Origin: Mobula hypostoma
Taxonomy: Eukaryota
Assembly: GCF_963921235.1 (NCBI RefSeq)
Contig: NC_086097.1
Location: 172,548,001 to 172,612,000 of the forward strand
Length of the DNA stretch: 64,000 nucleotides
Direction of reading: 5' to 3'
This document shows, one piece after another, positions 4,812 through 58,359 of the stretch (the stretch's first letter is position 1; the number at the start of each line of letters is the position of its first letter). Under the pieces are notes generated by a model that did not search any database, had not been told where the DNA came from, and saw only the letters and a list, made by a program, of their open reading frames with translations. Made by a program: the position numbers and the translations under genes.

Positions 4812-7800
4812 TCATCTAAAGTCTGCTCGCATTGGGGTTATATATTCAATCCATTTATTCCAGATTTGATAAAATGTTTCTTTTTGAGTTCTCAGGGAGT
4901 AAGTCAACTTTTCCATTTTAAATATTTCCAAGATAATTTCGTACCAATCTTCTAATGTAGGTGGTATTGGATTTAGCCATTTTCTAGTGATTGATTTCTT
5001 ACTTGCCGCCAAGAGGGCCTGCAGCAACTTTATATCTTCCTTCTGTTCAAGGAACAATACATGCCCCAAATAGAGCGTCTCAAAGTTCAGAGGTATCTGG
5101 GACCTAAGTACCTTAACTAATGTTCTATGAATACCTTCCCAAAATAGACTTAATTTAGGGCAATCCCAGAAAATATGAAAATGATTTGCCTCCTTGGAGC
5201 CGCACCTTCTCCAACACATCACATTTGTATCTTTATATTTTTCCTGATATGGGGTCTTGAAGTATCTTATAATGTTTTTCCAACAATGTTCTCTCCAAGT
5301 CAAAGAATTAGTCGAGGACCATTGAAAGCTGCAGATTTTCCCCCAAGCCTCCTCTGAAAGCACCAACCCCGCTTCTTTCTCCCACTTCTCTTTAATATAC
5401 AGTGTATTTACATTTTTAGCATGGGAGAGTGCATTATATAGGCGAGAAACTGATTTACTAGGTATTGAACTGCAAGCCGAATTCAGAATCTTGAAAAATT
5501 CTAATTCTACTGTTGATAGGTCTGTATATCTACAACTCTGGTTAACATAGTTTCGTATTTGAAGGTACCTAAAAAAGTCATTATGTTCTAGGCCATGTTT
5601 GTCCTGCAGGATTTGGAAACTTTGTAATACTCTTTTATCTATAAATGAGAGGTAGGTTGTAAGACCTTTCTTTATCCATAGCTCAAATCTTTTATCTCCT
5701 CTGTTGGGAAGGAATTCGGTATCATATGCACACCATCTAAAGAGTTTTAACATGTTATTAATTCCACATGAATTAACCACCTTCTGCCATACTTTTAATG
5801 TAAGATTTATCCAAGCATTATTAAATTTTTCCAACTGGGCCATCAATCCTTTGTCAGCTATTGAGGCCTGAAGAGGAAAACTGTCAACTAATCCAAATTC
5901 TATTTCCTTCCATCTAGCCTTATATTCCCTATTACACCAATATAACAGAGGGGTTATCTGTGAGGCATAAAAATAATTTCTCAGGCAAGGAAGAACCATA
6001 CCTCCTCCTTCCTTCCCTAACTGTAAGGTGTTATATCGAATTCTAGGTTTCCTTCCTTGCCAAATGAAGCGGGAAATCCATTTGTCCCATTCCCTGAATT
6101 GATTATCATCCACCTCCACTGGTAAAGTACGGAAAAGATATAATAACCGAGGAAGAATATTCATTTTTATAGTATTTATCCTTGAATTTAAAATTAAAAA
6201 GGGGATAAGATTCCATCTATGCATATCTGCTTTTATCTCTGAGATAATGGCCCATAATTTACCTGTGACAGTGTTGAAAGATCCTTCGGCAGGGTTATTC
6301 CTAAATATTTTAATGATTTAGCTTCCCACTTAAGATCGTATGTATCCTGCAATTTTTTGGATGGTGTATAATTTAGGGACATAACCTGCGTTTTCTTTAC
6401 ATTTATTTTATAACCTGATATTTTCCCAAAGTCATCCAACAGTGTAAACAATCCTATAAATGATTTTTCTGGTTCACTCAGATAGACCAAAACATCATCT
6501 GCGAATAACGCCACTTTCTGTTCAATCCCTGCCACCTTGATACCTTTTACGATTTCGCTCTGTCTTATTAGTTGGGCAAGTGGTTCAATATATAGCGCAA
6601 AAAGGAGAGGAGAAATTGGGCATCCCTGTCTAATGCCTCTCTCTAAAATGAAGGAGTCAGAGAGGTCCCCATTTATCTTAATTCGGGCTGTAGGGCTGTC
6701 ATATAGAGTCTGAATTACTTTAATAAACCTTTCTTGAAAGCCGAATCTTCCTAACACTCTGTATAGGAATGCCCAACTAACCGAATCAAAAGCTTTTTCA
6801 GCGTCCAATCCTACTACCATTGTCTCTGTCTCGTTCTTATTAACCTGTTCTAATATGTGCAGAGTTCTCCTTATGTTGTCCTGTGTTTGTCTTTGTTGAA
6901 TAAATCCAGTCTGGTCTAAATGGATTAGGCCAGGTAAGAGCTTTTCCAATCTGCGCGCTAATATAGATGTAAATAGTTTGTAATCTAAATTAAGAACACT
7001 AATTGGCCGATAATTGCCACATTCTAGTTTATCTTTACCCTCTTTAGGAATAACTGAAATAATCGCTTCTCTCCAGGAAGGTGGAGTTTCTCCTCTCTGC
7101 AAGATCCAATTAAAGGTGTTAAGTAGTAATGGGGCTAACTGTGTCTTCAGGGACTTGTACCACTCTGAGGTAAACCCATCAGAACCCGGGGACTTTCCAG
7201 CCTTTAACCTAGAGATGGCCACGTTCAGTTCTTTGACAGTTACTGGTTCTAATAAACTTTCATTTTGTAAATCTGTAAGTTTAGGTAGATCTAAAAAATT
7301 CAATACACTGTCTATATAGGGCTCAATGGGGGCCCGGGGTTGGGAGTACAGCTCTCGATAATATGTTTCAAAACTCTCTTGAATTTTCCCTATTGTACTC
7401 TCCACAAGCTTTGTCTTTGGATTCTTTATTTTATGAATTGTATTGTCTGCTTGTTGTTTTCGTAATTTATATGCTAATAATCTAGCTGATTTACCTCCTA
7501 CTTCATAATTCTTTTGTCTCAGGTAAAGAAAATTTCTTTGAGTTTCCAACGTATAAGTATCATCAATTTCACTTTGCAATTTCCTAATTTCCTGTTTTCG
7601 ATTTGAGTTACTTTTGTTGCTATCTACAACTTGAAGTTGTTTTAATTTTCTTTGAAGGTCTGCTAATTTTTGTGCATTGATTTTTTTCATGTGAGTAGTA
7701 ATGGAAATAATTTTCCCTCTCAGTACAGCTTTCAATGTATCCCATAAAATCACTGGTGATGTTTCTCCCGTGTCATTAAGGTCTAGATATTCTTTGATTT

Positions 7801-8600
7801 CTCCCCTTAATCTCTCCATTACTTTCGGGTTATTGAGTATATGTGAGTTTAGCCTCCATAGTGTTTTCCTAATTTTCCTTTCCAGGATTAGAGACATAGA
7901 GACTGGGCTATGATCCGACAGATCAATTGTTGCAATATTACAGTTTTTTATCCTGAGTCTATCTGTATTAAAGATAAAAGAAATAGTCTATCCTTGAATA
8001 GGCTGAATGAGGGAAAGAGTAATATGTATAATCTTTACTAGTAGGGTGTAATTCCCTCCAGACATCTATAATTCCCAACTCCTCCATCAATGAATTCACT
8101 TTCCGAGTCAGAAGTTTATTCTGAGTAACTATTCTTGAAGAATCTAATATAGGATTTAATCTAATATTAAAATCCCCTCCACAAATTACTACCCCTCGAG
8201 AACTGACCATTAGGTCAAAAATGTGTCTATAAAATGACCATTCACTACCTGGAGGAGCATAAACATTCAGCAATGTTATTTCTGTACCTTCTATTCTTCC
8301 TGTGATTTTTACAAACCGTCCTTCTTTGACTCTAGTCTCTGAAATATGTTCATAATTAAGAGTACTTGATATTAAAGTAGCTACCCCTCTTTTGTGACTC
8401 AATTTATATGATGAATAAAATACATGCTTAAAGCCCATTCTTTTTAATTTTCCATGTTCAGATTGGCTCATATGTGTTTCCTGGAGGAAAGCTATTTGTG
8501 CCCTCTCTTTTTTCAATTTAGACATAATCTTATTTCTTTTAATTGGATTCAAAACCCCATTAACATTATAGGAAATTATTTTTACCAATTCAGTTTGCAT
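4812..8600 (-). pseudogene. L1 ORF2 (APE endonuclease plus reverse transcriptase), two single-base frameshifts
   Basis: EN motifs SYNVNG, LQETH, GDFN, SRIDY, SDH. RT motifs NYRPISVLN, DAEKAFD, RQGCPISP, FADD, KYLG. One extra base near 7976-7979 and one missing base near 6245 join the three ORFs. Confidence 0.95.
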
Positions 8601-8962
8601 TTTTCTCTAGTAGAGAAAAAGCACTCTCCTTTTCTAACCAAACAGTAAGCAATCCCTTCTCAACAGTAAACCAAGACATATAACCACACCCTAGACATTT
8701 CTGAACGTATAACATTTGAAAATTTTTCCCAACTTCCCACAGTGAGGCCTGAGCACCGACCCGCCTCAGTTCAGAGGGATAACCTGTATCTTCACCCTGT
8801 GTTAGAGGGCCCTCAGCAGTTTGAATAATCATAGAGAACTTTCTCCTATTTATGTCTTGACCATATTGCTATCATTCAAGTTATTCCGCCTAGTTTATTT
8901 TCAGTTACCAGTTTTCATTTTACTTTTAAGTCCGATTTACTCTTTTCAGTCATTTCTCTTAA

Positions 8963-9949
8963 TTAATCTGTATTCTCTGTACATTCGCGTCTGAATATTT
9001 GCAGCTTTTCCTTGTAGTTTGACACTCTGGTTCGAGTGGAGCGTCCTCACCCCACTAACTGCCACGACTTCTGCCGAATCCTCTCCAGTAGCAACTCCGG
9101 TTGGATGATAACTTTAATAGGTAGTCCCCGGTCCGCCAGGTCCAACGTTGCCTCCTCCACCGTAGCGTAAGTTTTTGTCCCTTCGTCGTAAAAGACTCTC
9201 AGCTGAGCTGGATACAGGGTCTGGAATCTGATGTTGTTTTCCTTCAGGACCCTCCGTGTTTCCATATATTCCTTCCGTCTGGCAAGAATCCCCGGTGCGT
9301 AGTCGTGGTCTAAACTGATTTTGCAGTTGTTCCACATGAAACCTTTCTTTTGCCATGCTCTTTTAAGCACCTCTTCCTTCGTTCTGTAACTGAGAAATCT
9401 GACCAGAATCGATCTGGGCTAGGCGCCTGCCGGAGGCTGTGGTGTCAACGCGCGGTGAGCCCTTTCTATCTGTCGGTCTTTTGCGGCCGGTATATCAAGG
9501 TTCTCTCTAAGCAGCTTCTCCACGAAAGGAATCATCAATCCGGGTTTACCTTCGGTTCCTTCGGGAACTCCGTAGATCCTCACATTTTCCCTTCTCGAGC
9601 GGCCTTCTTGATCTATTAGTTTCCACTGGAGCTGGTCTTGTAGCTTCAGCATTTCTGCTATCACTTCCTCGGCGTTTTGTAGCTTCTCTTCAATTCCAAC
9701 AATCCTCGCTTCGGCTTCATCTATCCGCGAGTTAGTTTTTACTATTTCTCCTTTAATATCTTCCAGCTGTTTGCTGTTATCTTGTCGGAACTCGCGAATC
9801 TCTCCGAGAATCAAAGACAGAGTCACCGATTCCCCCTCATTATCTCCGTCCTGGCTTGCCGTGGGGGAGCTAGGCCCGTCGCCTTGCTGCATCTCTTTAT
9901 GTTTATCAGCCTTCGAAGTGGACTTTTTATTCTTGTTCTTAGACATCAT
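8963..9949 (-). pseudogene. L1 ORF1 (coiled coil plus RRM/CTD, Transposase_22-like), two in-frame stops
   Basis: EGRSRRENVRIYGVPE, IERAHR and TLYPAQLRV motifs. ORFs 9419-9949 and 9047-9370 are in the same frame (TAG at 9419-9421). Past the TGA at 9047-9049 the frame reads GRSTRTRVSNYKEKLQIFRRECTENTD to a TAA at 8963-8965. Confidence 0.9.
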
Positions 9950-11091
9950 CCTTGCCCCTTTTATTAATATAGTTATGCAATATTAAGTATTTGTCTAAAT
10001 TCGATTTTGGGGCAGTTTACCTTCTTTTTTGTCGAGAGACCTTTTCCTTACGCCGCCATTCCCTTGATGACCCGCGGACAATCCGCACCTCTGATGTTTG
10101 AACCTTCTCGCCATTTAGATAATAGTCTGCACTATTATTCCTTTTACCAAAACGCATTGTCATACATTTCCCAACATTGTATTCCATCTGCCACTTTTTT
10201 GCCCATTCTTCCAACTTGGCTAAGTCCTGCTGTAATCACATTACTTTCTCAGCACTACCTACCCTTGCACCTATCTTTGTATCATCAGCAAACTTTCCTA
10301 CAAAGCCATCAATTCCATTACCGAAATCATTGACAAACAATGTGAAAAGTAGCAGTCCCGACACTGACCACTAGTCACCAGCAGCCAAGCAGAAAAGGCC
10401 CCTTTTATTTACACTTGCTACCTCATGCCTGTCAGCCATTCCTCTATCCATGCCAGTATCTTTCCTGTAACACCATACGATTTTATCTTGTTAAAAAGCC
10501 TCATGTGTGGCACCTCATCAAATGACTTCTGGAAATCCAAGTAAATGACATCCGCTGCCTCTCCTTTGTCCATGCTGCTTGTTACTTCCTTGAAGAACTC
10601 GTAACAGAATTGTCAGGCAATGTTTCCCTTTACAGAAACTATGCTGAATTTGACTTACTTTATCATTTGTCTCCAAGTACCCCGAAACCTCATGCTTAAC
10701 AGTAGACTCCAACACTTTCCCAATAACTGAGGTTAGGTTAACTGACCTTTAATTCTTTTCTTTTGCCTTCCTCCCTTCTTAAAGAGTGGAGTGACATTTG
10801 CAATCTTCGGGACAATGCCAGAATCAAGTGATTCTTGAAAAATTATGACCAATGTATCCGTTAACTCTTCACTAACCTCTCTCCAGACTTTGGGATGTAG
10901 TCCATCCAGTCCAGGTGACCTATCCACCTTAAGACCTTTCAGTTTGTCTAACACTTCTTCCCTTGTAATGGCAATGGCACTCACTCCTGCTCCCTGACAC
11001 TCACGGTCCTCTGGAACACGGCTAGTGCCTTCCACAGGGAAGACATACGTAAAGTATACATTAAAGTACACTTCTTTTTACTCTTTATATA

Positions 11092-20584: not shown

Positions 20585-21745
20585 TACTGCTTGTTCACCA
20601 GCTGAATTATGTACATGCTGTGTCAAGAAACTCTCCTGGATGCACCTAACAAATGCCGCCTCATTTAAACCTCTGGAACTAAGGGAGATCCAGCCAATAC
20701 TGGAAGATTAAAGTTGCTCACTACAGATAGCCAGTTGTTTTCACATCTTTCCATAACCTGCCTACATATCTATTCCTCCATCTCCTGCTGGCTATTAGAA
20801 GGGCAGTACTGTAGTCTGTCATAGTGGTTGCACCTTTATTATTCCTGAGTTCTAACTCATATTGCCTCACTGAATGAGCCCTCTGGGACATCCTCTCCAG
20901 TTAGTGCTGTGAAATTCTCCCTGATCAGTGCCTCAACACCCCACCTCTCTTACAGCCCTCCCTATCACATTTGAGGCATTGAAAACCTGGAATGTTAAAC
21001 TCCTGTGTGCTGTGTTGTTCCGCCAAGCATTGCAGGAATGCTTTATTGGCATCGGAATGTGTGACAACACCTGGGGACTGAGCCAGCACATCCTTGGGTA
21101 TGATGTATTGTTGCTATGCGATAAGTAACAAGAATCTGATTCTGCTAGTGCTTCTCGCCCCTCAATTGTTTCTGTAATCGCTACAACATTGAAGTTCTAT
21201 GGACTAACATAAGTTTATTGAAATTAATTGCATTAAAATGAATACTCGTCACTGCATCAGTCAAACCCTGCTCGCCCTTCTTTCCAACCTTACTTGAGCT
21301 TTCTTCTCAATCCCACTGCTTGCTGACCTGGTGACTGGTTCCCGTCTCTCTGCCACGTTAGTTCAAATGCTCCTGATCTGCCCCGCAAACCTCCTTACAA
21401 GGATATTGGTGCCTCTCCAGTTCAGGTGCCAGCAGTCCCTCTTGTACACATCCCACCTGTACTGGGAGGGAACCCAATAATCCAGAAACCTGAGGCTTCT
21501 TGCAAAGGCTCCTTAGTCATATACTGTATTGAACTGTACTATCTTCCTATTTCTTGCCCCATTAACACATATTGCAAAGATTACTCCAAAGATTAGTTCT
21601 TCTTTTTAATTTCCTGCCTAACTCCCAAACATCACATTGTAGGACTTCACCTCTCTTCCTGCCTATGTTGATATTATGGATCACAGGATTTGGCTGATCA
21701 CTCTCTCCTTTCAGAATGTCCTGTGCCTTCTCAGAGGCATCCACG
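20585..21745 (-). mobile_element. Old CR1 fragment covering the ORF1 esterase end and EN start
   Basis: ORF 21562-21744 (ILKGESDQP...ELGRKLKRRT) aligns by eye with ORF1 at 53196-54104; junction variant tttgaactaa at 21358-21367 (minus). Confidence 0.6.
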
Positions 21746-39200: not shown

Positions 39201-40660
39201 AATTGCCATACCTTTGGTGGGCTTAACCACAAGCTGCTTTAAAAAACCGTCTCGGAGGCATTCTACAAATACCTTCTCTTAAATTCAATACCGACCTGAT
39301 TTTCTCAACCTACTTGCTTATTAAAATTCTCTACCATAATCTCAACATTGCCCTTTTTACATGCCTTTTCTATCTCCCATTGTAATTTGTAGTCCACATC
39401 CTGGCTATTGTCCAGTGGTTTGAATATAATTCCCATCAAGGTCTTTTTACCTTTGAAGTTTCTAAACTCTAACAACAAGGATTCCACATGCCACCTCTTT
39501 CTAAGGATTTGATTTAATTTTTTTTTACCAACAGAGCCACCCCAACCCCTCTGCCTATTTGCTTTATGCTTTTGATACGATGTGTATCCTTGGATGTTAA
39601 GCTCCCAACGATGATCTTCTTTCAGCCACAACTCAATAATGTCCACAACGTCATATCACTAACAATGTCTAACTCTGCTACAAGATCACCTACTTTATTC
39701 TGTATACTACATGCATTCAAATATAACACCTTCAGTTCTGTACTCAGAGCCCTTTTCGATTTTGGCCCACTATTCCAATACACCTCACTGATTGCAATTT
39801 TGCGCTATCATCTGCCTGTCCTTCCTCACAGTCTCACTACACATTGCACCTAATTGTATACCAACTTCAGCCCTGTCATGCTGGCTCACAACCCCCTGCC
39901 AAAGTAGATTAAACCCTCCCTAACAGCTCTAGCAAATGTACCCACAATGATATTGGTCCTCCTTGGGTTCAAGTATAAACCATCCTTTTTGAACAGGTCG
40001 TACCTTCTCCAGAAGAGATCCGAATGACCCAGAAATCTGAAACCCCGGCCCCTGCACCAATACTTCAAGCATGCATTCATCTGCCAAATCATCTTATTCT
40101 TACCCTCACTGGCACACAGCACAGGCAGCAATCCAGAGATTACTACCTTGGACATCCTGCTTTTCAGCTTTCTACCTAATGCCCTATATTCTCTTTTCAG
40201 GACCTCCCCCTTTTCCTACCTATATTATTGGTACCAATATATATCACAGCTTCTGGCTATTCATCCTGCACATTTAGAATGCTGTGAACCTGATCTGAGA
40301 CACCCCTGACCCTGGCACCTGGGAGGCAACATACCATCCCGGTGTCTCTTTCACGTTCACAGAGGCTGCTGTCTGCTCCTCTAATCATGGAACTGCCCAT
40401 CACTGCTGTTTTCCTCTGCTCCTCCCTTCCCTTCCAAGCTACAGAGAGACTCAGTGCCAGAGATCAGGTCACTGCCGCCTCCCCCGGCAGGTCGGCCTGC
40501 CCAGCAGCATTCAAAGTGGTAGATTTATTATTGAGGGGAACAGCCACAGGAACACTCTGCCCTGGTGCCTATTCCCTTGCCCTCTCCTGACAGTCACCCA
40601 GTCATGCTGACCTCCCTGTAGCTTCTGTCTATCACATCCTCATCCAGCTGCAACTCCAGT
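36262..40660 (-). mobile_element. Degenerate, internally deleted near-full-length CR1 (ORF1 esterase, EN, RT pieces)
   Basis: SKVVISGLLPV...LYLNPRRTNII (39886-40155); WLKEDHRWELNIQGY; FFSQKVVNLWNSL; colinear with 50007-54000. Confidence 0.85.
37133..38001. mobile_element. 869-bp TG...CA element, probable solo LTR
   Basis: Termini tgtag...ttaca; perfect 4-bp TSD ctag at 37129-37132 and 38002-38005; host CR1 ccatgctagtatctt is restored on removal; no ORF. Confidence 0.75.
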
Positions 40661-48870: not shown

Positions 48871-50106
48871 CCATCAATACTCATGTAAAATTCACCGAGG
48901 ACACAGAGATGGCCAGCTTATGTTTCAGAATTAGATTGACTTCAGTGATCCTTTGAAGACAGAGATAAATTATTCGGCAAGCAGAAAGCAGTGGACTTAA
49001 TTAGTGTGGATTTTCCTTCAGGAATTTATAAACACATACATAAATCAAGGAAGTTAGGAATAATGGGAATTGATGGCATTAGCTGGATAGATTGAAAAAC
49101 GACGAAGGTTGTGGCTGTTGAACCATTGAAACCTGGAGGGCATACCTGGGGTCAGCAATACTCAGACGAGGTCCAGGACCCAGAGGGAGGGGAGCCTAGC
49201 TTCTAGAGAAACCAGAGTCACTGAAAGCGAGGAGCTTACATTCCAAAAGAATTAAGGTGTTCTTGCAAGGGCCATAGATGCTCTGTAGGAGACTAAGGCT
49301 CAATTAACTGGAAATGGAGTGATGAAACAAGAGGGAGTTTTAGATTGCCAGAGCTTGGAGTCCCTGGTGTCGGAAAGGTGGCTTAATAATTAATTGTCAA
49401 CCCCCACCATAGTGGTTTGTTTACATAGGATTAAACTATTGATCCAGTGATCTAGGGGCTTTGTTTAATAGTCTGCATGTTCCAATCCTATCATGTCAGC
49501 TCTGGATAAATATCAATACAAAATTGGCATCAATCGAGGCAAGCATGAAATTACCAATCGCATGAAAGCTAGCAGGTTATGTAGACCAATAATTAGTAAA
49601 TCCAAGCCCTTATAAACAATTTGTAAATTGGTAAGTGTGTTGATAATTGTCGTATGTATTGAAGTATAGGGGCAGGTCATTTCATCACAACAGTACGTTA
49701 AGGTAGTACAAAATAATTCAATAACAGAATGCAGAATAAAGTGTTACATTTACAGAGGAAACGCAGAGCAAGCAGGCAGTAAGGTGCAAGCCATAACAAG
49801 GTAGATTGTGAGGTCAAGTATTCATCTTATGTCAGCAGCCTGACAGTGAAACAGTGGGATAGAAGCTGTCCTTGAGCCTGGTGGTACATGCTTTCAGGTT
49901 TTTCTATCTACTGCCCAATGGGAAGGTGGGGGGGGGGGGGAAGGAAGTGAAGTAACCTCCTTGTTTTTATGGAATACAAAAGCAAAGAAATTATACTGAA
50001 TCACAAATAAGACCATAAGACCATAAGAGAAAGGAGCAGAAGTAGGCCATTCGGCCCACTGAGTCTGCTCCGCCATTTTATCATGAACTGATTCATTTTA
50101 TCCTAT

Positions 50107-53106
50107 TTAGCCCCACTGCCCCGCCTTCTCACTATAACTTTTGATGCCCTGGCTACTCAGATACCTATCAATCTCTGCCTTAAATACGCCCAATGACTTG
50201 GCCTCCACTGCTGCCCGTGGCAACAAATTCAATAGATTCACCACCCTCTGACTAAAAAAATTTCTTCGCATTTCTGTTCTGAAAGGGCGCCCTTCAATCC
50301 TGAAGTCATGCCCTCTCGTACTAGACTCCCCCATCATGGGAAACAACTTTGCCACATCCACTCTGTCCATGCCTTTTAACATTCAAAATGTTTCTATGAG
50401 GTCTCCCCTCATTCTTCTAAACTCCAAGGAATACAGTCCAAGAGCGGACAAATGTTCCTCATATGTTAACCCTCTCATTCCCGGAATCATTCTCGTGAAT
50501 CTTCTCTGTACCCTCTCCAACGTCAGCACATCCTTTCTTAAATAAGGAGACCAAAACTGCCCACAGTACTCCAAGTGAGGTCTCACCAGCGCCTTATAGA
50601 GCCTCAACATCACATCCCTGCTCCTATACTCTATTCCTCTAGAAATGAATGCCAACATTGCATTCGCCTTCTTCACTACTGACTCAACCTGGAGGTTAAC
50701 TTTAAGGGAATCCTGTATGAGGACTCCCAAGTCCCGTTGCATCTCAGAACTTTGAATTCTTTCCCCATTTAAATAATAATCTGCCCGTTTATTTTTTCTG
50801 CCAAAGTGTATAACCATACACTTTCCAACATTGTACTTCATTTGCCACTTCTCTGCCCATTCTTCCAATCTATCCAAGTCTCTCTGCAGACTCTCCGTTT
50901 CCTCAGCACTACCGGCCCCTCCACCTATCTTCATATCGTCAGCAAACTTAGCCACAAAGCCATCTATTCCATAATCCAGATCGTTGATGTACAATGTAAA
51001 AAGAAGCGGCCCCAACACTGATCCCTGTGGAACACCACTGGTAACCGGCAGCCAACCAGAGTAGGATCCCTTTATTCCCACTCTCTGTTTCCTGCCAATC
51101 AGCCAACGCTCTATCCACATATGTAACTTTCCTGTAATTCCATGGGCTCTTATCTTGTTAAGTAGCCTCATGTGTGGCACCTTGTCAAAGGCCTTCTGAA
51201 AATCCAAATATACAACATCCGCTGTATCTCCCTTGTCTAGCCTACTGGTAATTTCTTCAAAAAATTGTAATAGGTTTGTCAGGCAGGATTTTCCTTTAAG
51301 GAATCCATGCTGAGTTCTGCCTATCTTGTCATATGCCTCCAGGTACTCTGTAACTTCATCCTTGACAATCGACTCCAACAACTTCCCAACCACCAACGTC
51401 AAGCTAACAGGTCTATAATTTCCTTTTTGCTTCCTTGCCCCCTTCTTAAATAGCGGAGTGACATTTGCAATCTTCCAGTCTTCCGGAACCATGCCAGAAT
51501 CTATCGACTTTTGAAAGATCATCGCTAATGCCTCCGCAATCTCCACAGCTACTTCCTTCAGAACACGAGGGTGCATTCCATCTGGTCCAGGAGATTTATC
51601 GACCTTTAGCCTATTCAGCTTCCTGAGTACTTTCTCTGTCGTAATTGTGACTGCGCACACTTCTCTTCCCTGCCACCCTTGAGTGTCCGGTATCCTGCTG
51701 TCTTCCTCAGTGAAGACTGACGCAAAATACTTGTTCAGTTCCTCTGCCATCTCCTCATCTCCCATTACAATTTCTCCAGTATCATTTTCTATCGGTCCTA
51801 TACCTACTCTCACCTGTCTTTTACTCTTTATATACTTGAAAAAGCTTTTAGTATCCTCTTTGATATTATTTGCTAGTTTCCTTTCATAGTTAATCTTTTC
51901 TCTCTTAATGACCTTCTTGGTTTCCTTTTGTAAGGTTTTAAAAACTTCCCAATCCTCTGTCTTCCCACTAATTTTTGCTTCCTTGTATGCCCTCTCTTTT
52001 GCTTTAACTTTGGCCTTGACTTCTCTTGTCAACCACGAATGCATCCTTTTTCCACTCGAAAATGTCTTCTTTTTTGGAATATACCTGTCTTGCACATTCC
52101 TCATTTTTCGCATAAACACCAGCCACTGCTGCTCTGCCGTCTTTCCCGCCAGTGTCTCTTTCCACTCAACTTTGGCCAGTTCCTCTCTCATGCCACTGTA
52201 ATTTCCTTTACTCCACTGAAACACCGACACATCAGATTTCGGCTTCTCTTTTTCTAATTTCACAGTAAACTCAATCATGTTATGATCACTGCCTCCTAAG
52301 GGTTCCTTCACCTCAATCTCTCCAATCACCTCCGGTTCATTACACAATACCCAATCCAGTACAGCCGATCCCCTAGTGGGCTCAACAACAAGCTGTTCTA
52401 AAAAGCCATCTCGCAGACATTCTACAAATTCTCTCTCTTGAGATTCAGTGCCGACCTAATTTTTCCTTTCTACTCGCATGTTAAAATCCCCCACAATTAT
52501 CATAACACTGCCCTTCTGACAAGCCTTTTCTATTTCCAGTTGTAATTTGTAGTCCACATCCCTGCAGCTGTTTGGAGGCCTATAAATAACTGCCATCAGG
52601 GTACTTTTACCCCTGCTATTCCTTAGCTCAACCCATAAAGATTCTGCACCTTCTGATCCTATATCACCTCTTTCTAATGATTTAGTATCATTTCTTACCA
52701 ATAAAGCCACGCCTCCCCCTCTGCCTACCTTCCTATCCTTCCGATACACCGTGTATCCTTGGACGTTCAGCTCCCAGAGACATGCATCCTTTAGCCAGGT
52801 CTCAGTGATGGCCACGATATCATACCTGCCAATCTGTAGCTGTACAACAAGATCATCCACCTTATTCCTTATGCTGCATGCATTTAAGTACAACACCTTA
52901 AGACCAGTATTTGATACTTTTTGCTTTGATTTCACTGCAACTTTATTGCACTTCAACTCATCCCAATGGCTACACATTTGCCCCATCACCTGCCTGTCTT
53001 TCCTGACATCTTTACTGCTCACTATCTTAGATTTATTTCTGTTTTCCCCTTCCTCCGCTCTATCATTCCGGTTCCCATCCCCCTGCCAAATTAGTTTAAA
53101 CCCTCC
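50107..53106 (-). pseudogene. CR1 ORF2 (APE endonuclease plus RT), two in-frame stops
   Basis: YLNACSIRNK, ITETWL, GDFN, SDH, NYRPVSLT, DFQKAFD, GVPQGSVLGP, FADD. ORFs 52456-53022, 50383-52347 and 50107-50382 share one frame, which opens at 53106. Confidence 0.95.
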
Positions 53107-54104
53107 CTAACAGCTCTATTAAACTTTCCCGCCAGGATATTGGTCCCCTTCGGGTTCAGGTGTAACCTGTCCTTTTTGAACAGGTCATACTTTCCTCAGA
53201 AGAGATCCCAATTATCCAAGAATCTGAAGCCCTGCCCCCTACACCAGTCTCTCAGCCAGGCATTCATCTGCCTGATCCGACGACTCTTGCCCTCGCTAGA
53301 ACGTGGCACAGGTAGCAATCCCGAGATTACTACCCTGGAGGTCCTGCTTCTCAGCTTCCTTCCTAACTCCTGGAAATCTCTCTTCAGGACCTCCTCCTTT
53401 GTCCTATCTATGTCATTGGTACCAACATGTACCAAGACAACTGGCTGCTCACCCTCCCCCTTTAGAATATTCAGGACCCGATCCGAGACATCCCGTACCC
53501 TAGCACCTGGGAGGCAACACACCATGCGGGTATCTCTGTCAAGCTCACAGAATCTCCTGTCTGTTCCCCTGACTATGGAATCCCCCACGACTACCGCATT
53601 TCTCTTCTCCCTCCTTCTCTCCTGCACAACAGCGCCAGGCTCAGTGCCAGAGACCCGGTCACCGTGGGCATCCCCTGTCAGGTCATCCCCCTCAACAGCA
53701 TCCAGAACAAGATATTTGTTGCTGAGGGGCACAGCCACAGGGGTGCTCTCCACTATCCCGGCATTTCCCTTCCCTCTCTTGACAGTGACCCAGTGTTCTG
53801 ACTCCTGTAGCCTAGGGATGACTACTGACTCCTGTAGCCTAGGGATGACTACCTCCTTGTAGCTCCCGTCTATCACCTCTTCACTTTCCCTGATAAGCAG
53901 TAGGTCATCAAGCTGCAGCTCCAGATCCCTAACACGGTCTCTGAGGAGCTGCAACTCGGTGCACCTGGCGCAGATGTGGCCATCAGGGAGGCTGGAAGTC
54001 TCCCAGGATTCCCACATCTGACACCCTGAACAAAGCACTAACCCTGCAGGCATGCTATCTAATTCTACAGGAATGAAACAGGAAAAATAAGTCTGCTCAC
54101 CCAC
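53091..54104 (-). pseudogene. CR1 ORF1 (Cys-rich zinc finger, coiled coil, SGNH/GDSL esterase), one premature TGA
   Basis: CSGC...CARC; VVGDSIVR, LPGAR, HVGTND. After the TGA at 53196-53198 the frame continues GKYDLFKKDRLHLN (DxxH)...EGLN to a TAA at 53091-53093. The true start is uncertain. Confidence 0.9.
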
Positions 54105-54320: not shown

Positions 54321-54526
54321 CCTTTTTAAACTCCACGCGGTCCTGCTGACATCATGCGCCTGCGCAGTCTTGCCCTTCTTGCACTCGAAGAAGTTTTACA
54401 AAAACTGCCTTCCTTCACAATTCAGCTCCCACGACGCTCTGTAGTCCCGATCCAAAGAGCCGTTGGTAGCAACCTGCCTTTTTAAACTCACTGCGCGGTC
54501 CTGCTGACGTCACGCGCCTGCGCAGT
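54321..54526 (-). promoter_or_regulatory. Duplicated putative internal Pol II promoter module in the CR1 5' UTR
   Basis: Two copies (54321-54368, 54477-54526) of minus-strand actgcgcaggcgc (NRF1-like), tgacgtca (CRE, mutated in one copy) and tttaaaaa (TATA-like). Function is inferred. Confidence 0.5.
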
Positions 54527-55147: not shown

Positions 55148-58100
55148 GAAGAAGCAGATGAAGAGACAGCATGTCCCTACAACATGTTTGCAGTGGAAAC
55201 ATTTGAGGAACCACCTGAACCATATTATGCCACAGTCACCGTCAGGGGAAAGGACAGTAAGTTTGAGATTGATACAGAGGCTACTGCATAGGTCATTAGT
55301 GAGGAGACCTACAGGAGGACATGGGGGTCCAACCTGCCTCCCATTAGACCATCAAAGCTCAAACTTAGGACCTATACGGGCAGCCCATACCTCATTTAGG
55401 GATGTCATATTTGGACATTTCAGCCAGGGGTCAGAAGGCTGAAGTCAGTCTAGTGATAGCTAAGGGCACGGGGCCCAGTCTTTTGGTTCCACGATTGGCT
55501 TCGCAAAATCCAGCTCAACTGGCATGAAATTAAGTTTGCACATACGACGGAGGACATTCTGCAGTGGTACAGTGACGTTTTCGGGACGAGCTGGGAACAC
55601 TGATGGGTGTGACAGTGAAACTCCATGTCAACCCTCAGGCCACACCATGTTTTTTTAAGCGCAGGTCAGTGCCCTATGCCATGAAAGGCAAAGTCGAGGA
55701 GGAGGTGGAACGTTTACAGAGGCTGGGCATTATTGAGCCCATCCAGTTTTCAAGGTGGGCAGCTCCCATTGTTCCAGTTCTGAAGGCAGACAACACTGTG
55801 AGGATATGTGGGAATGATAAGCTTACGGTGAATCAGATCTCTAGGCTGGAGGAGTACCCATTGCCACAGGTGGATGACCTGTTTGCGACCCTGTCAGGGG
55901 ATAAGCTGTTCACAAAGCTGGACATGAGCCATGCCTACTAACAGCTGCTGCTCGATGAGGATTCAAAGGAGTACATCACAATTAATACGCACAATGGATT
56001 ATTCAAGTACAATCACCTGGTATTTGGAGTGGCGTCCAGCCCTGCCATTCTCCAAAGGACAATGGGCACTTTGCTGTAGGGGATTCCGCACATAGCAGTG
56101 TACTTTGATGATATTTTGATCATGAGGGCTACAGAGGTGGAGCATCTGGCTAATTTAGAACGGGTGCTGAAGAGGCTCTCAAATGCAGGGCTGCAGTTGA
56201 AATGCAGAAAATGTGTGTCCCTGGCATCGAGTGTGACTTACCTGGGACACAAGATCACCGCTGAGGGGCTTTGCCCTGTGGAGGACAAAGTGAGAGCTAT
56301 TAAGGAAGCCCAAGCCCTAAGACCATCACGGAACTCAGATTATTTTTGGACATGGTGAATTACTATGGCAAGTTTCTTCCTGAATTCTCCAGGGTTTTGA
56401 CCCTACTGTATAGGCTGTTACACAATGACACTAAGTGGCAATGGGGTGAAGAGCAGGAGAAAGCTTTCAAGGAAGTGAAAGAACTCCTCCACTCAGCGAT
56501 GCTGCTTGTTCACTATGACCCAGACAAGGAGATCACCCTTGCATGCGATGCCTCACCCTATGGATTTGGGCAGTTCACTCACATGTAATGGAGGACCGTT
56601 CAGAGAAGCCTATTGGTTTTGCTTCACGTACCCTGACAGCTGCTGAGAAGGGATATTCACAGCTAGACAAAGGAGGTCTGGCCATTGTTTTTGCGGTCAA
56701 ACGCTTTCATCAGTACCTTTATGGATGCGTATTTACAATTTATACGGACCGTAAACCACTGATGAGCCTGTTCAGTGAGACTAGATGCATCCCACCGCTA
56801 GCCTCAGCCAGGATACAGCGCTGGGCTCTTACATTGTCAGCCTACCGGTGCACTATAGTGTACAGAGCGGGTGGGGATAATGCAAACGCCAATGCACTGA
56901 GTTGACTACCTTTATCTGAGACACCTGTTACTACATATGTGCCTCCAGAGACAGTGTTTTCATTGGACAGGCTGTCAGAGACGCCTGTAAAGGCGACCCA
57001 GATCAGGCAGTGGACAGAGAGGGACCCAGTCCTGTCCCAAGTCAAGACTTTTCTTTTACAAGGTTGGTCCAGAGTCATGGAAGGAGAGGAACTGAGGCCT
57101 TATGCCAAAAGAAAGACAGAACTCAGCCTGCAGGATGGCCGCATTTTCTGGGGGGGGGGGGCGAGGGTCATCGTGCCTCCCCCTGGCCGTTCACAGATTG
57201 TGGAGGAAATTCATAAGACTCACCCAGGAGTGTCTTGAATGAAAAGCCTTGCAAGATCCTACGTTTGGTGGCCAAGAATGGATCAGGATTTGGAGAACAA
57301 GGTAAAATCATGCACGCAATGTCAGGCTAATAGAATATGCTACCACCAGCTCCTTTGTATCCATGGGAGTGGCCAGACCACCCCTGGTGTAGGCTACATT
57401 TGGACTTTGCTGGCCCTTTTATGGGGCAGATATTTCTTGTAATGGTAGATGCGCATTCTAAATGGATCAAAGCTCATATCATGAGCGCCATCACAGCCCC
57501 CTCAACCACAGACAAACTCAGGCAAGTGTTTGCAGTCCACGGGTTGCCTGACACTCTGGTCACTGATAAAGGCCTGACGTTCACCAGTGAACTGTTCAGT
57601 GAGTTCATGCAGCAGAATGGCATTCATCACATTCGGGTGGCCCCTTTCCACCCGAGCTCCAATGGTTTGGCTGAGCGGGCTGTTCAAACAGTGAAGGAAA
57701 GCCTGAAGCGGATGACATGGGACTCTCTTAGCATTCGGCTTTCACGTTTCCTGTTTAAGTACCACCTCACGCCACAGACTACGACTGCCCGCACTCCAGC
57801 AGAGATGGTTATGGGGCGTAGGCCCAAGTCAAGATTGGACCTGTTGCACCTGGACATGAAGACAAAAGTGAAGAGAAAGCAGGGAAAGCAGAAGGAAGGA
57901 CATGGTCAACATGCGCAAGAGAGGCAGTTAAAACCGGATGACAATGTCTATGTGAGAAACAATCAGCAATGGCTGCCTGGGGTTATTCTTAAGCGGAGTA
58001 GTCCCGTCTCTTATGTTGTTAAGCTGACTGATGGGCATGTTTTCTGCAGACATCAGGACCATGTGCGCCTGTGTCATGATACTGGCTCAGAGGCAGACAG

Positions 58101-58359
58101 TTCCATAGAGTTTCCATTTGTGAGACAGACTATGGTAGAAGCATGTCCACCAGTGACTTTGCCAGAGGGTGTGACGCTGGCAGAGGGGTTGGGGTCCCCT
58201 GCAGAGGATGGACATTCTCACGCAGACACACAGACCCCTCTCATGCCCCCAAAACCAGACCCACCCAAAACACCATTATCAGTGGTGCCTGCTGGGTTAC
58301 CGGGGGTAGTGCGCAGATCACAACACACTCGTAAACCTCCTGACAGACTGAATCTTTGA
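55148..58359 (+). pseudogene. Gypsy pol (protease, RT, RNase H, integrase), multiple stops and frameshifts
   Basis: FEIDTEA (decayed DTGA), WAAPIVPV, LDMSHAY, YFDD, CDASPYG, ASRTLT, H..H/CTQC zinc finger, LHLDFAGPF, LVTDKG, SNGLAERAV. Confidence 0.92.

Follow-up and report, generated by a model that had tools for sequence, protein, structure and literature searches.

A probable programmed -1 ribosomal frameshift site at the ORF1-ORF2 junction of esterase-type CR1 LINEs

The ORF1-ORF2 junction of a CR1 element lying in the window, the 64,000-nt stretch of Mobula hypostoma DNA analysed here, is probably a programmed -1 ribosomal frameshift site giving an ORF1-ORF2 fusion, and one that is common to esterase-type CR1 LINEs. 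An earlier note on this DNA had proposed such a fusion from the letters alone; the conservation of a slippery heptamer and of its phase now supports that reading. On the minus strand, the ORF1 frame ends GAG GGT TTA AAC TAA and, as the earlier note had it, the ORF1 phase holds two X_XXY_YYZ heptamers, G_GGU_UUA starting at 53103 and U_UUA_AAC starting at 53100. The -1 frame, which is the ORF2 frame, is indeed closed by a TAG and open from 53106, with its first ATG far downstream (Table 1).

We infer that the majority of ribosomes would end translation at the ORF1 stop, and that a minority would slip back one base onto UUU AAA while Leu-tRNA sits on UUA and Asn-tRNA on AAC, thereby bypassing the stop and reading a variable linker into the endonuclease and reverse transcriptase. 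The predicted product, joined as ...REGLN-LIWQGDG..., would be an ORF1-ORF2 fusion of about 1,300 residues and would carry a few ORF2 units into the ORF1p particle in the manner of Gag-Pol; the adjacent stop codon and a run of G residues are the putative stimulators. Among the classical features of -1 sites, the junction has an in-phase heptamer, a downstream ORF in the -1 frame that is open from the heptamer, and conservation beyond coding; a shared stimulatory 3' stem-loop or pseudoknot was not found in the 12 junctions folded. Since the X_XXY_YYZ pattern has 253 matches on the minus strand of the window, the heptamer by itself is unsurprising, and it is its place, phase and conservation that exceed chance.

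The CR1 element and its junction

The element has what characterizes esterase-type CR1, namely the ORF1 layout, an APE endonuclease and a reverse transcriptase in ORF2, and a 3' hairpin followed by an octamer microsatellite, the arrangement described for the 3' UTR of amniote CR1 (PMC4316615). ORF1 carries two Cys pairs close to its N-terminus, matches Pfam Lipase_GDSL_2 (E 1.8e-15) and PDB 4C1B, the solved L2-type esterase (E 2.5e-41), and a structure model of one ORF1 protein (P0002) places a helix at residues 62-102. ORF2 matches Exo_endo_phos (E 2.1e-10) and RVT_1 (E 6.4e-32), its endonuclease beginning at about 52902. The same ORF1 layout (type IVB: zinc finger, leucine zipper, esterase) is that of CR1 subgroup 7 (PMC4120745), which also has the APE-RT ORF2, the 3' hairpin and the octamer tail in common with the window element (PMC4120745; PMC4316615). 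In a reverse transcriptase tree (FastTree, 24 rows, no curated CR1 or L2 references), the window element falls in one group (support 95) with three loci of bird/reptile type and an element from a swallow. The window copy itself is dead and makes nothing; its ORF1 is interrupted by a stop at 53198-53196 and its ORF2 frame by two stops, at 52458-52456 and 50385-50383. Two older copies in the window keep junctions where the earlier note had placed them, with heptamer equivalents starting at 39913 and 21367.

Table 1. Features of the CR1 copies in the window (positions within the window)
Feature	Position	Strand	Description or basis
Probable 5' UTR	54321..54526	-	two copies of a ~50-nt unit: 54321-54368, 54477-54526
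ORF1, 320 codons	53091..54053	-	Cys-pair zinc finger, long helix, SGNH/GDSL esterase
Stop closing the -1 frame in the window copy	53107..53109	-	two codons before the heptamer; family-variable
Overlapping second heptamer G_GGU_UUA	53097..53103	-	in phase; ray-type family only
Slippery heptamer U_UUA_AAC	53094..53100	-	last two codons of ORF1 (Leu-Asn) and preceding base
ORF1 stop codon	53091..53093	-	immediately 3' of the heptamer; frame reading
Run of five G, candidate stimulator	53079..53083	-	10 nt past the heptamer
First ORF2-frame ATG	52984..52986	-	104 nt past the ORF1 stop
ORF2 frame, -1 relative to ORF1	50107..53100	-	~66-codon linker, APE endonuclease, reverse transcriptase
3' UTR hairpin	50033..50071	-	z -3.84 for 50007-50110; 0/200 shuffles equally stable
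3' tail, 8-nt repeat	50007..50027	-	~2.6 units; sequence
Junction of second, decayed CR1 copy	39904..39913	-	ORF1, endonuclease and RT remnants ~40670-38000
Junction of third, more decayed CR1 copy	21358..21367	-	heptamer equivalent found

Conservation of the heptamer and of its phase

Of 38 loci examined, eight foreign ones had ORF1 in frame to its L-N end, and all eight read T TTA AAC TAR, a spelling that the ORF1 codon usage of such loci predicts at 0.24 x 0.10 x 0.375 = 0.009 (~1%). An endonuclease match lies in the -1 frame in each of the five of these loci that have one, the distance from the stop to the match being ~84 to 135 nt, versus ~190 in the window. A family-wide tally of variants was also made, in contig pieces of two organisms (18,135 and 16,983), whose depth is maximal at 53081-53102. 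Among the variants listed, none reaches at least 5% within 53087-53107, a 21-nt interval chosen after inspecting the data, and in the same pieces the Leu, Leu and Asn codons of an L-N further upstream (53163, 53159 and 53154) show synonymous changes reaching 9-30%. Outside this interval, base 53108 differs in 15% and 26% of depth, so that the TAG closing the -1 frame, although present in the window copy as the earlier note claimed, is not invariant. The three bases ahead of U_UUA_AAC likewise vary across junctions; of the two heptamers first described, U_UUA_AAC is thus the conserved one and G_GGU_UUA is limited to the ray-type family. The ORF1 stop column reads TAA or TAG in 11 of 15 junctions and differs by one base in the other four, and the columns of the G run hold G in 14, 13, 14, 13 and 14 of 14 junctions. 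Other collections yielded little: the exact junction pattern had no match in metagenome contigs, viral contigs scanned for CR1 gave no element (the single locus, L039, is an unrelated SGNH gene), and genome contigs gave four loci, none with a junction, the genome containing L035 having matches on that locus's contig only.

The protein ends extend the comparison to more distant relatives. All 41 aligned ORF1s have Asn as their last residue, and LN ends were found in rays, sharks, a chimaera, a bony fish, a frog, a snake, a turtle and a swallow. Among 117 distant representatives reaching the end of the domain, 59 end in LN, 10 in GN and 4 in KN, LN rows being favoured because the ranking profile contains the L-N end. 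After collapse into 76 tail clusters, LN is preceded by a residue with only pyrimidine-ending codons in 13 cases and by one with only purine-ending codons in a single case, as against 0 and 7, respectively, before GN (Fisher p 7e-5, kin not being independent). End tripeptides that fit an in-phase heptamer occur in 36 of the 76 clusters, versus 728 of 20,792 internal tripeptides; the other 40 clusters have no heptamer-compatible end. Judged from these protein ends only, the preceding residue appears to switch as U_UUA_AAC (LN), G_GGA_AAC (GN) and A_AAA_AAC (KN) would require, and these three are among the most shifty heptamers on mammalian ribosomes (PMC5009743). The end types switch more than once on the esterase tree (FastTree), and a clade of five rows that have DGLHP, a motif of the solved L2-type ORF1, has no heptamer-compatible end. 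The earlier note had asked whether heptamer and phase are kept beyond what an x-L-N protein motif needs; the eight loci, the contig variants and the end tripeptides all indicate that they are, and at the level of sequence the heptamer is conserved beyond protein need.

Start codons, stimulators and rival explanations

Among other accounts of the junction, termination followed by reinitiation, as in SART1 and human L1, fares best, but is an unlikely one; ribosomes would restart 2 nt past the stop (UAG NN AUG) or further on, and make a separate ORF2p. L1 ORF2 tolerates the loss of its AUG, which suits such a route. According to reviews, LINE ORF2 is usually translated by reinitiation (PMC2881922), and an in-frame AUG, overlooked in the earlier note, lies 2 nt past the stop in five of the 15 junctions, each of the five being of bird/reptile type, with GUG there in one more; these five keep reinitiation alive as a rival or as a second route. 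Two junctions (L004 and L010) also fold a 6-7 bp hairpin ~27 nt past the heptamer, downstream hairpins being confined to some bird/reptile-type loci, and SART1 requires downstream structure (PMC3708506). Against this, the codon 2 nt past the stop is a non-start codon (TGG, TCG, TCC or CCG) in the nine other junctions, the three of the window among them, and the family-wide variants listed include no ATG at this codon. The first in-frame AUG of the window copy is, moreover, behind three ATGs in the ORF1 frame (53078, 53066 and 53009). TURBS-type reinitiation drops off beyond ~30 nt (PMC10275272), and an in-frame start codon within ~20-30 nt of the stop is absent from the window copy and present in the five junctions of other lineages. 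Reinitiation also leaves unexplained the switching among exactly heptamer-compatible end tripeptides. On this account, the conserved bases would shape termination or tether the 40S subunit, and in bird/reptile-type lineages reinitiation may run alongside frameshifting.

The search for a conserved ATG equivalent to that of the window copy, which the earlier note had called for, found none: in the eight junctions with a readable endonuclease motif, the first in-frame Met is at codon 4, 21, 22, 38 or 58 of the -1 frame. Seven of the eight have some in-frame AUG ahead of the motif and, given also the five AUGs close to the stop, ORF2 is not generally AUG-less; at the locus L006, the first in-frame Met is within the endonuclease, 16 codons beyond its first motif. 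Upstream of the heptamer, the open -1 frame contains an ATG in just 1 of 15 junctions; dual coding of the overlap from an ORF2 start further upstream was therefore rejected, since the F-K-L cannot come from such a start in the 14 others. The predicted N-termini of 24 ORF2 proteins are uninformative because gene callers choose starts, and a search of longer proteins for a natural full-length ORF1-ORF2 fusion, itself a weak test, found none, apart from one unrelated chimera. One Hypanus protein (P0036) crosses at the junction from ORF1 to the ORF2 frame; it may reflect a one-copy insertion or an annotation fix and was not counted.

Stimulation of the proposed frameshift by RNA structure found little support. 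In agreement with the earlier impression of no clear downstream hairpin, no stem-loop 3' of the heptamer is shared among the 12 junctions folded (pseudoknots not being explicit), the window giving z of +0.67 and +1.09 and only L002 attaining about -2. The G-quadruplex put forward as a possible aid is predicted in 3 of the 12 junctions, two-tier only, and was discarded as a shared stimulator. Long-range pairing of the G run has no common downstream partner in seven elements. C-rich candidate matches ~650-670 nt upstream, seen in four of the seven, were not counted. U_UUA_AAC, the stop and the run of five G are conserved, with no local structure found.

A near-invariant G run in such a setting is what a single-stranded binding site would look like, and the bases might be kept for another RNA- or DNA-level purpose, be it a signal for protein binding or packaging, or polymerase slippage producing a fused mRNA. 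This is nonetheless very improbable: a binding site need not keep the ORF1 phase, nor ORF2 at -1 over differing linkers, and has no need to covary with the preceding codon, and for polymerase slippage the like-base runs are just three long. Finally, that the ORF1 protein needs a C-terminal Leu-Asn, the DNA spelling being chance and shared descent, is largely refuted: although the tail has a constant 26 residues from the DGxH motif in vertebrate-type ORF1s and many rows are kin, synonymous positions are fixed at the end and free in the upstream L-N, Gly or Lys replaces Leu, N-ending tails have between 23 and 39 residues overall, the alignment with the solved L2-type esterase stops at profile position 307 of 311, and in a structure model the last two residues are placed beyond the final helix (block mean pLDDT 60).

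Relation to known systems and significance

A programmed -1 frameshift in CR1 would have a precedent among LINEs in TRE5-A and TRE3-A of Dictyostelium, APE-type non-LTR elements which differ in being amoebozoan and tRNA-gene-targeting and in having an ORF1 unlike other LINE ORF1s; the passages covered of the source (PMC5006619) give no slippery site or measurement. The coronavirus IBV uses U_UUA_AAC, the heptamer of the CR1 junction (PMC5009743), and in both IBV and retroviral gag-pol a structural ORF lies upstream and the polymerase in the -1 frame, as in CR1. The CR1 junction differs from these viral sites in that it has no shared 3' stem or pseudoknot, the stop adjoins the heptamer, the G run follows 10 nt on, and the host element is a non-LTR one. 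Arteriviruses have a C-rich motif ~10 nt downstream, whereas the CR1 motif is G-rich and its stimulatory role a candidate only. Arterivirus frameshifting is stimulated in trans by proteins (nsp1beta with PCBP), and pea enation mosaic virus shifts efficiently only with a stop 3 nt 3' of its shift site (PMC5009743). It is conceivable, though doubtful, that X_XXA_AAC, the stop and a run of five G 10 nt on make up a structure-free cassette shared from rays to birds and by older lineages, whose G run a protein acting in trans, either a host G-run binder or ORF1p itself, would read, so that frameshifting would be switched or self-regulated.

SART1 and human L1 resemble CR1 in their bicistronic mRNA, their ORF2 depending on ORF1 translation (PMC2881922). 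SART1 has an overlapping UAAUG (PMC3708506); at the CR1 junction, by contrast, the start is not conserved, the heptamer is, and the predicted product is a fusion. The word 'frameshift' does not occur in the main text of PMC4120745, PMC4316615 or PMC2734521, and the parts covered of the last, a chicken CR1 paper, use 'frame-shift' for mutations only. No report of CR1 frameshifting was found in the literature searched, which left out the primary CR1 papers Kajikawa 1997, Haas 1997, and Kapitonov and Jurka 2003.

Reviews describe the mode of LINE ORF2 translation as an open question (PMC3894237; PMC3708506), and the LINE cases that have been worked out favour reinitiation. In the chicken genome, the dominant repeat is CR1 (11.8%; PMC11835228). 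If the frameshift reading is true, the CR1 enzyme would bear ORF1 at its N-terminus, annotated CR1 ORF2 starts would be wrong, and a LINE would set its protein ratio as retroviruses do, with a cassette of ~25 nt that may serve as a compact stimulator free of RNA structure.

The element carrying the junction

The LINE that contains the ORF1/ORF2 junction is near full-length. A profile of its ORF1 aligns with 4C1B, the solved esterase of a LINE ORF1 (E 2.5e-41); the ORF2 frame codes for APE endonuclease and reverse transcriptase (RT), and the 3' end bears a hairpin followed by a tail of 8-nt repeats. This layout agrees with that of CR1 subgroup 7 and its type IVB ORF1 (PMC4120745, PMC4316615). 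Among named proteins, those of rays are nearest (Hypanus, 83%; Mobula, 93%), which suggests a ray-like host. The window copy itself is dead, since it has one stop within ORF1 and two within ORF2, the former being absent from 97% of the aligned contig-piece depth. Its ORF1 also holds a 27-nt duplication, and repeated units lie in the probable 5' UTR; we take these to resemble repeated promoter modules. The second LINE is presumably L1/Tx1-like, and its RT falls far from the CR1 RT in a tree. The plus-strand open frame presumably resembles a Ty3/gypsy-type integrase remnant.

Features of the CR1-type element and of its surroundings (window coordinates)
Feature	Position	Strand	Remarks
CR1-type LINE	~54530 to 50007	minus	near full-length
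Probable 5' UTR	54321-54526	minus	a ~50-nt unit present twice (88% alike); both copies contain a palindrome-like stretch rich in CpG, an octamer of the TGACGTCA type and a run of A/T
ORF1	54053-53091	minus	two Cys pairs, long helix, SGNH/GDSL esterase
Duplication within ORF1	53798-53851		exact 27-nt tandem; 9 extra residues, frame kept
G_GGU_UUA	53103-53097	minus	overlaps U_UUA_AAC
U_UUA_AAC	53100-53094	minus
ORF1 stop	53093-53091	minus
Second LINE, other kind	4812-9982	minus	pieces of ORF1, endonuclease and RT, their frames shifted
Open frame	57334-58359	plus	341 codons

Anatomy and DNA conservation of the junction

The earlier note described ORF1 as ending GAG GGT TTA AAC TAA, with both heptamers in its phase, and this was borne out, as were the opening of the -1 frame at 53106 and its first ATG at 52986; the frame reaches the endonuclease at ~52902, and three ORF1-frame ATGs precede the ATG at 52986. 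Heptamer-pattern matches number 253 on the window's minus strand, which makes a lone heptamer uninformative, and the case therefore rests on conservation.

A 41-row ORF1 alignment used as query retrieved 34 metagenome and 4 genome loci. The ORF1 match has no stop inside the locus in 19/38, mostly because the contig ends, stops elsewhere in 11/38 (broken copies or unrelated genes) and runs in frame to an L-N end in 8/38. The proposed heptamer proved conserved: all 8 intact ends are spelled T TTA AAC TAR, for which ORF1 codon usage (7 of the 8 loci) predicts a share of 0.009, a value not raised to a power because the 8 loci are kin. The endonuclease lies in the -1 frame in 5/5 intact L-N loci with an endonuclease match, and the frame stays open from the heptamer for 963 and 953 codons in loci L003 and L009. 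In a gapless alignment of 15 junctions (12 loci, partly chosen by motif, and the 3 window copies), the heptamer columns are kept in 14-15/15 while the bases to either side vary; a G5 run begins 10 nt past the heptamer and is kept in 13-14/14. Most of the 12 loci are of bird/reptile type as judged by likeness to a swallow element.

Proposed frameshifting, downstream sequence and possible reinitiation

This arrangement probably reflects tandem -1 slippage on U_UUA_AAC, the next codon in the zero frame being the stop; the resulting ORF1-ORF2 fusion would have ~1,300 residues and the junction REGLN-LIWQG. In a plant virus, a stop codon 3' of the shift site is known to be important (PMC5009743), and a -1 frameshift is required by Dictyostelium TRE5-A and TRE3-A according to a review legend (PMC5911963).

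No structure common to the 12 junctions folded was found after the heptamer, in agreement with the lack of a clear hairpin noticed earlier; in the window copy, the 60 and 100 nt that follow it are less stable than shuffled sequences (z +0.67 and +1.09). The G-quadruplex once suggested as stimulator was rejected as a shared feature, a two-tier quadruplex being predicted in just 3/12 junctions, and no shared downstream pairing partner of the G run was found among 7 elements. The fixed 10-nt spacing of this unstructured run suggests contact by a bound protein, or by rRNA at mRNA entry, a speculation that we hold to be rather doubtful; protein-stimulated frameshifting is known in arteriviruses (PMC5009743). 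Some bird/reptile-type junctions (L004 and L010) have a 6-7 bp hairpin ~27-52 nt past the heptamer, absent in the ray type, which could aid reinitiation at a nearby AUG, or frameshifting.

LINE ORF2 translation is treated as unresolved or attributed to reinitiation in PMC3894237, PMC3708506, PMC10275272 and PMC2881922, and the earlier note likewise named reinitiation as the usual attribution. In 5/15 junctions the stop is followed at 2 nt by an in-frame AUG, and 7/8 with a readable endonuclease motif have one somewhere before it (L006 being the sole exception); where this AUG falls is not conserved (codon 4, 21, 22 or 38). ORF2 is therefore not generally AUG-less, and reinitiation may be at work in some lineages. 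As the way in which ORF2 is made, it nonetheless appears improbable given the shifting AUG position and the ray family, where TGG follows the stop and the variants listed include no ATG at this codon.

No paper on CR1 frameshifting was found in the literature searched, including passages of PMC11835228, PMC5006619, PMC4316615, PMC4120745 and PMC2734521, nor is CR1 mentioned in the searched portion of a large frameshifting review (PMC5009743); primary CR1 papers or Repbase notes may already remark on the junction.

Conservation within the family and among ORF1 proteins

Contig pieces of two organisms (18,135 and 16,983) were aligned on 52960-53260 at 80% likeness. Depth is highest at 53081-53102 (in one set of pieces, 3.6-3.7 million versus 1.1-2.1 million over most flanks) and loose piece ends pile up at 53051-53070; the junction is therefore common to other subfamilies and the linker is not. 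No variant of 5% or more falls within 53087-53107 among the 40 of 50 variant rows listed; the probability of 0/34 variable places in this 21-nt stretch, picked after inspection, is 0.0075. That these bases are kept for another nucleic-acid role is very unlikely. Their retention as a protein motif is scarcely credible, since the upstream Leu-His-Leu-Asn shows synonymous changes of up to 13/9%, 17/30% and 18/30% (two organisms).

An LN end is found in 92/120 ORF1 homologs listed, 45 rows being close kin, and 117/150 representatives (50% identity) reach the domain end, with LN in 59, GN in 10 and KN in 4. PMC5009743 singles out four heptamers as the shiftiest on mammalian ribosomes, and U_UUA_AAC, G_GGA_AAC and A_AAA_AAC are among them; the first needs a U-ending codon before LN and the second a G-ending codon before GN. 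With protein tails collapsed to 76 tail clusters, the ratio of residues whose codons all end in a pyrimidine to those whose codons all end in a purine is 13:1 before LN and 0:7 before GN (Fisher p 7e-5, protein ends only, kin not independent). End tripeptides are heptamer-compatible in 36/76 tail clusters, versus 3.5% of internal tripeptides, and incompatible in 40/76. A tree built without the tail places one FLN and one SKN end among GN ends, and its clade of 5 with a DGLHP motif shows no heptamer-compatible end. Judged by these comparisons, the junction is a real, deeply conserved recoding-type signal.

In other ORF1 clades (proteins P0203, P0211, P0248, P0254, P0205, P0239 and P0182), K-N is conserved 12-14 residues ahead of the stop, or F-F a single residue ahead of it; these may be candidate A_AAA_AAC or U_UUU_UUY shift sites away from the stop, with a longer ORF1 tail. 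A shark/ray-type CR1 ORF1 labelled as a Pseudomonas aeruginosa hydrolase (P0022, 4 kb contig) is probably host contamination. Esterase-type ORF1s with longer tails also occur in L006, L012 and L018, loci of one distant lineage, and in proteins P0077-P0121, P0136 and P0160. This ORF1 type is found in vertebrate subgroups only according to PMC4120745, and an invertebrate host for the longer-tailed ORF1s, if true, would widen its range.
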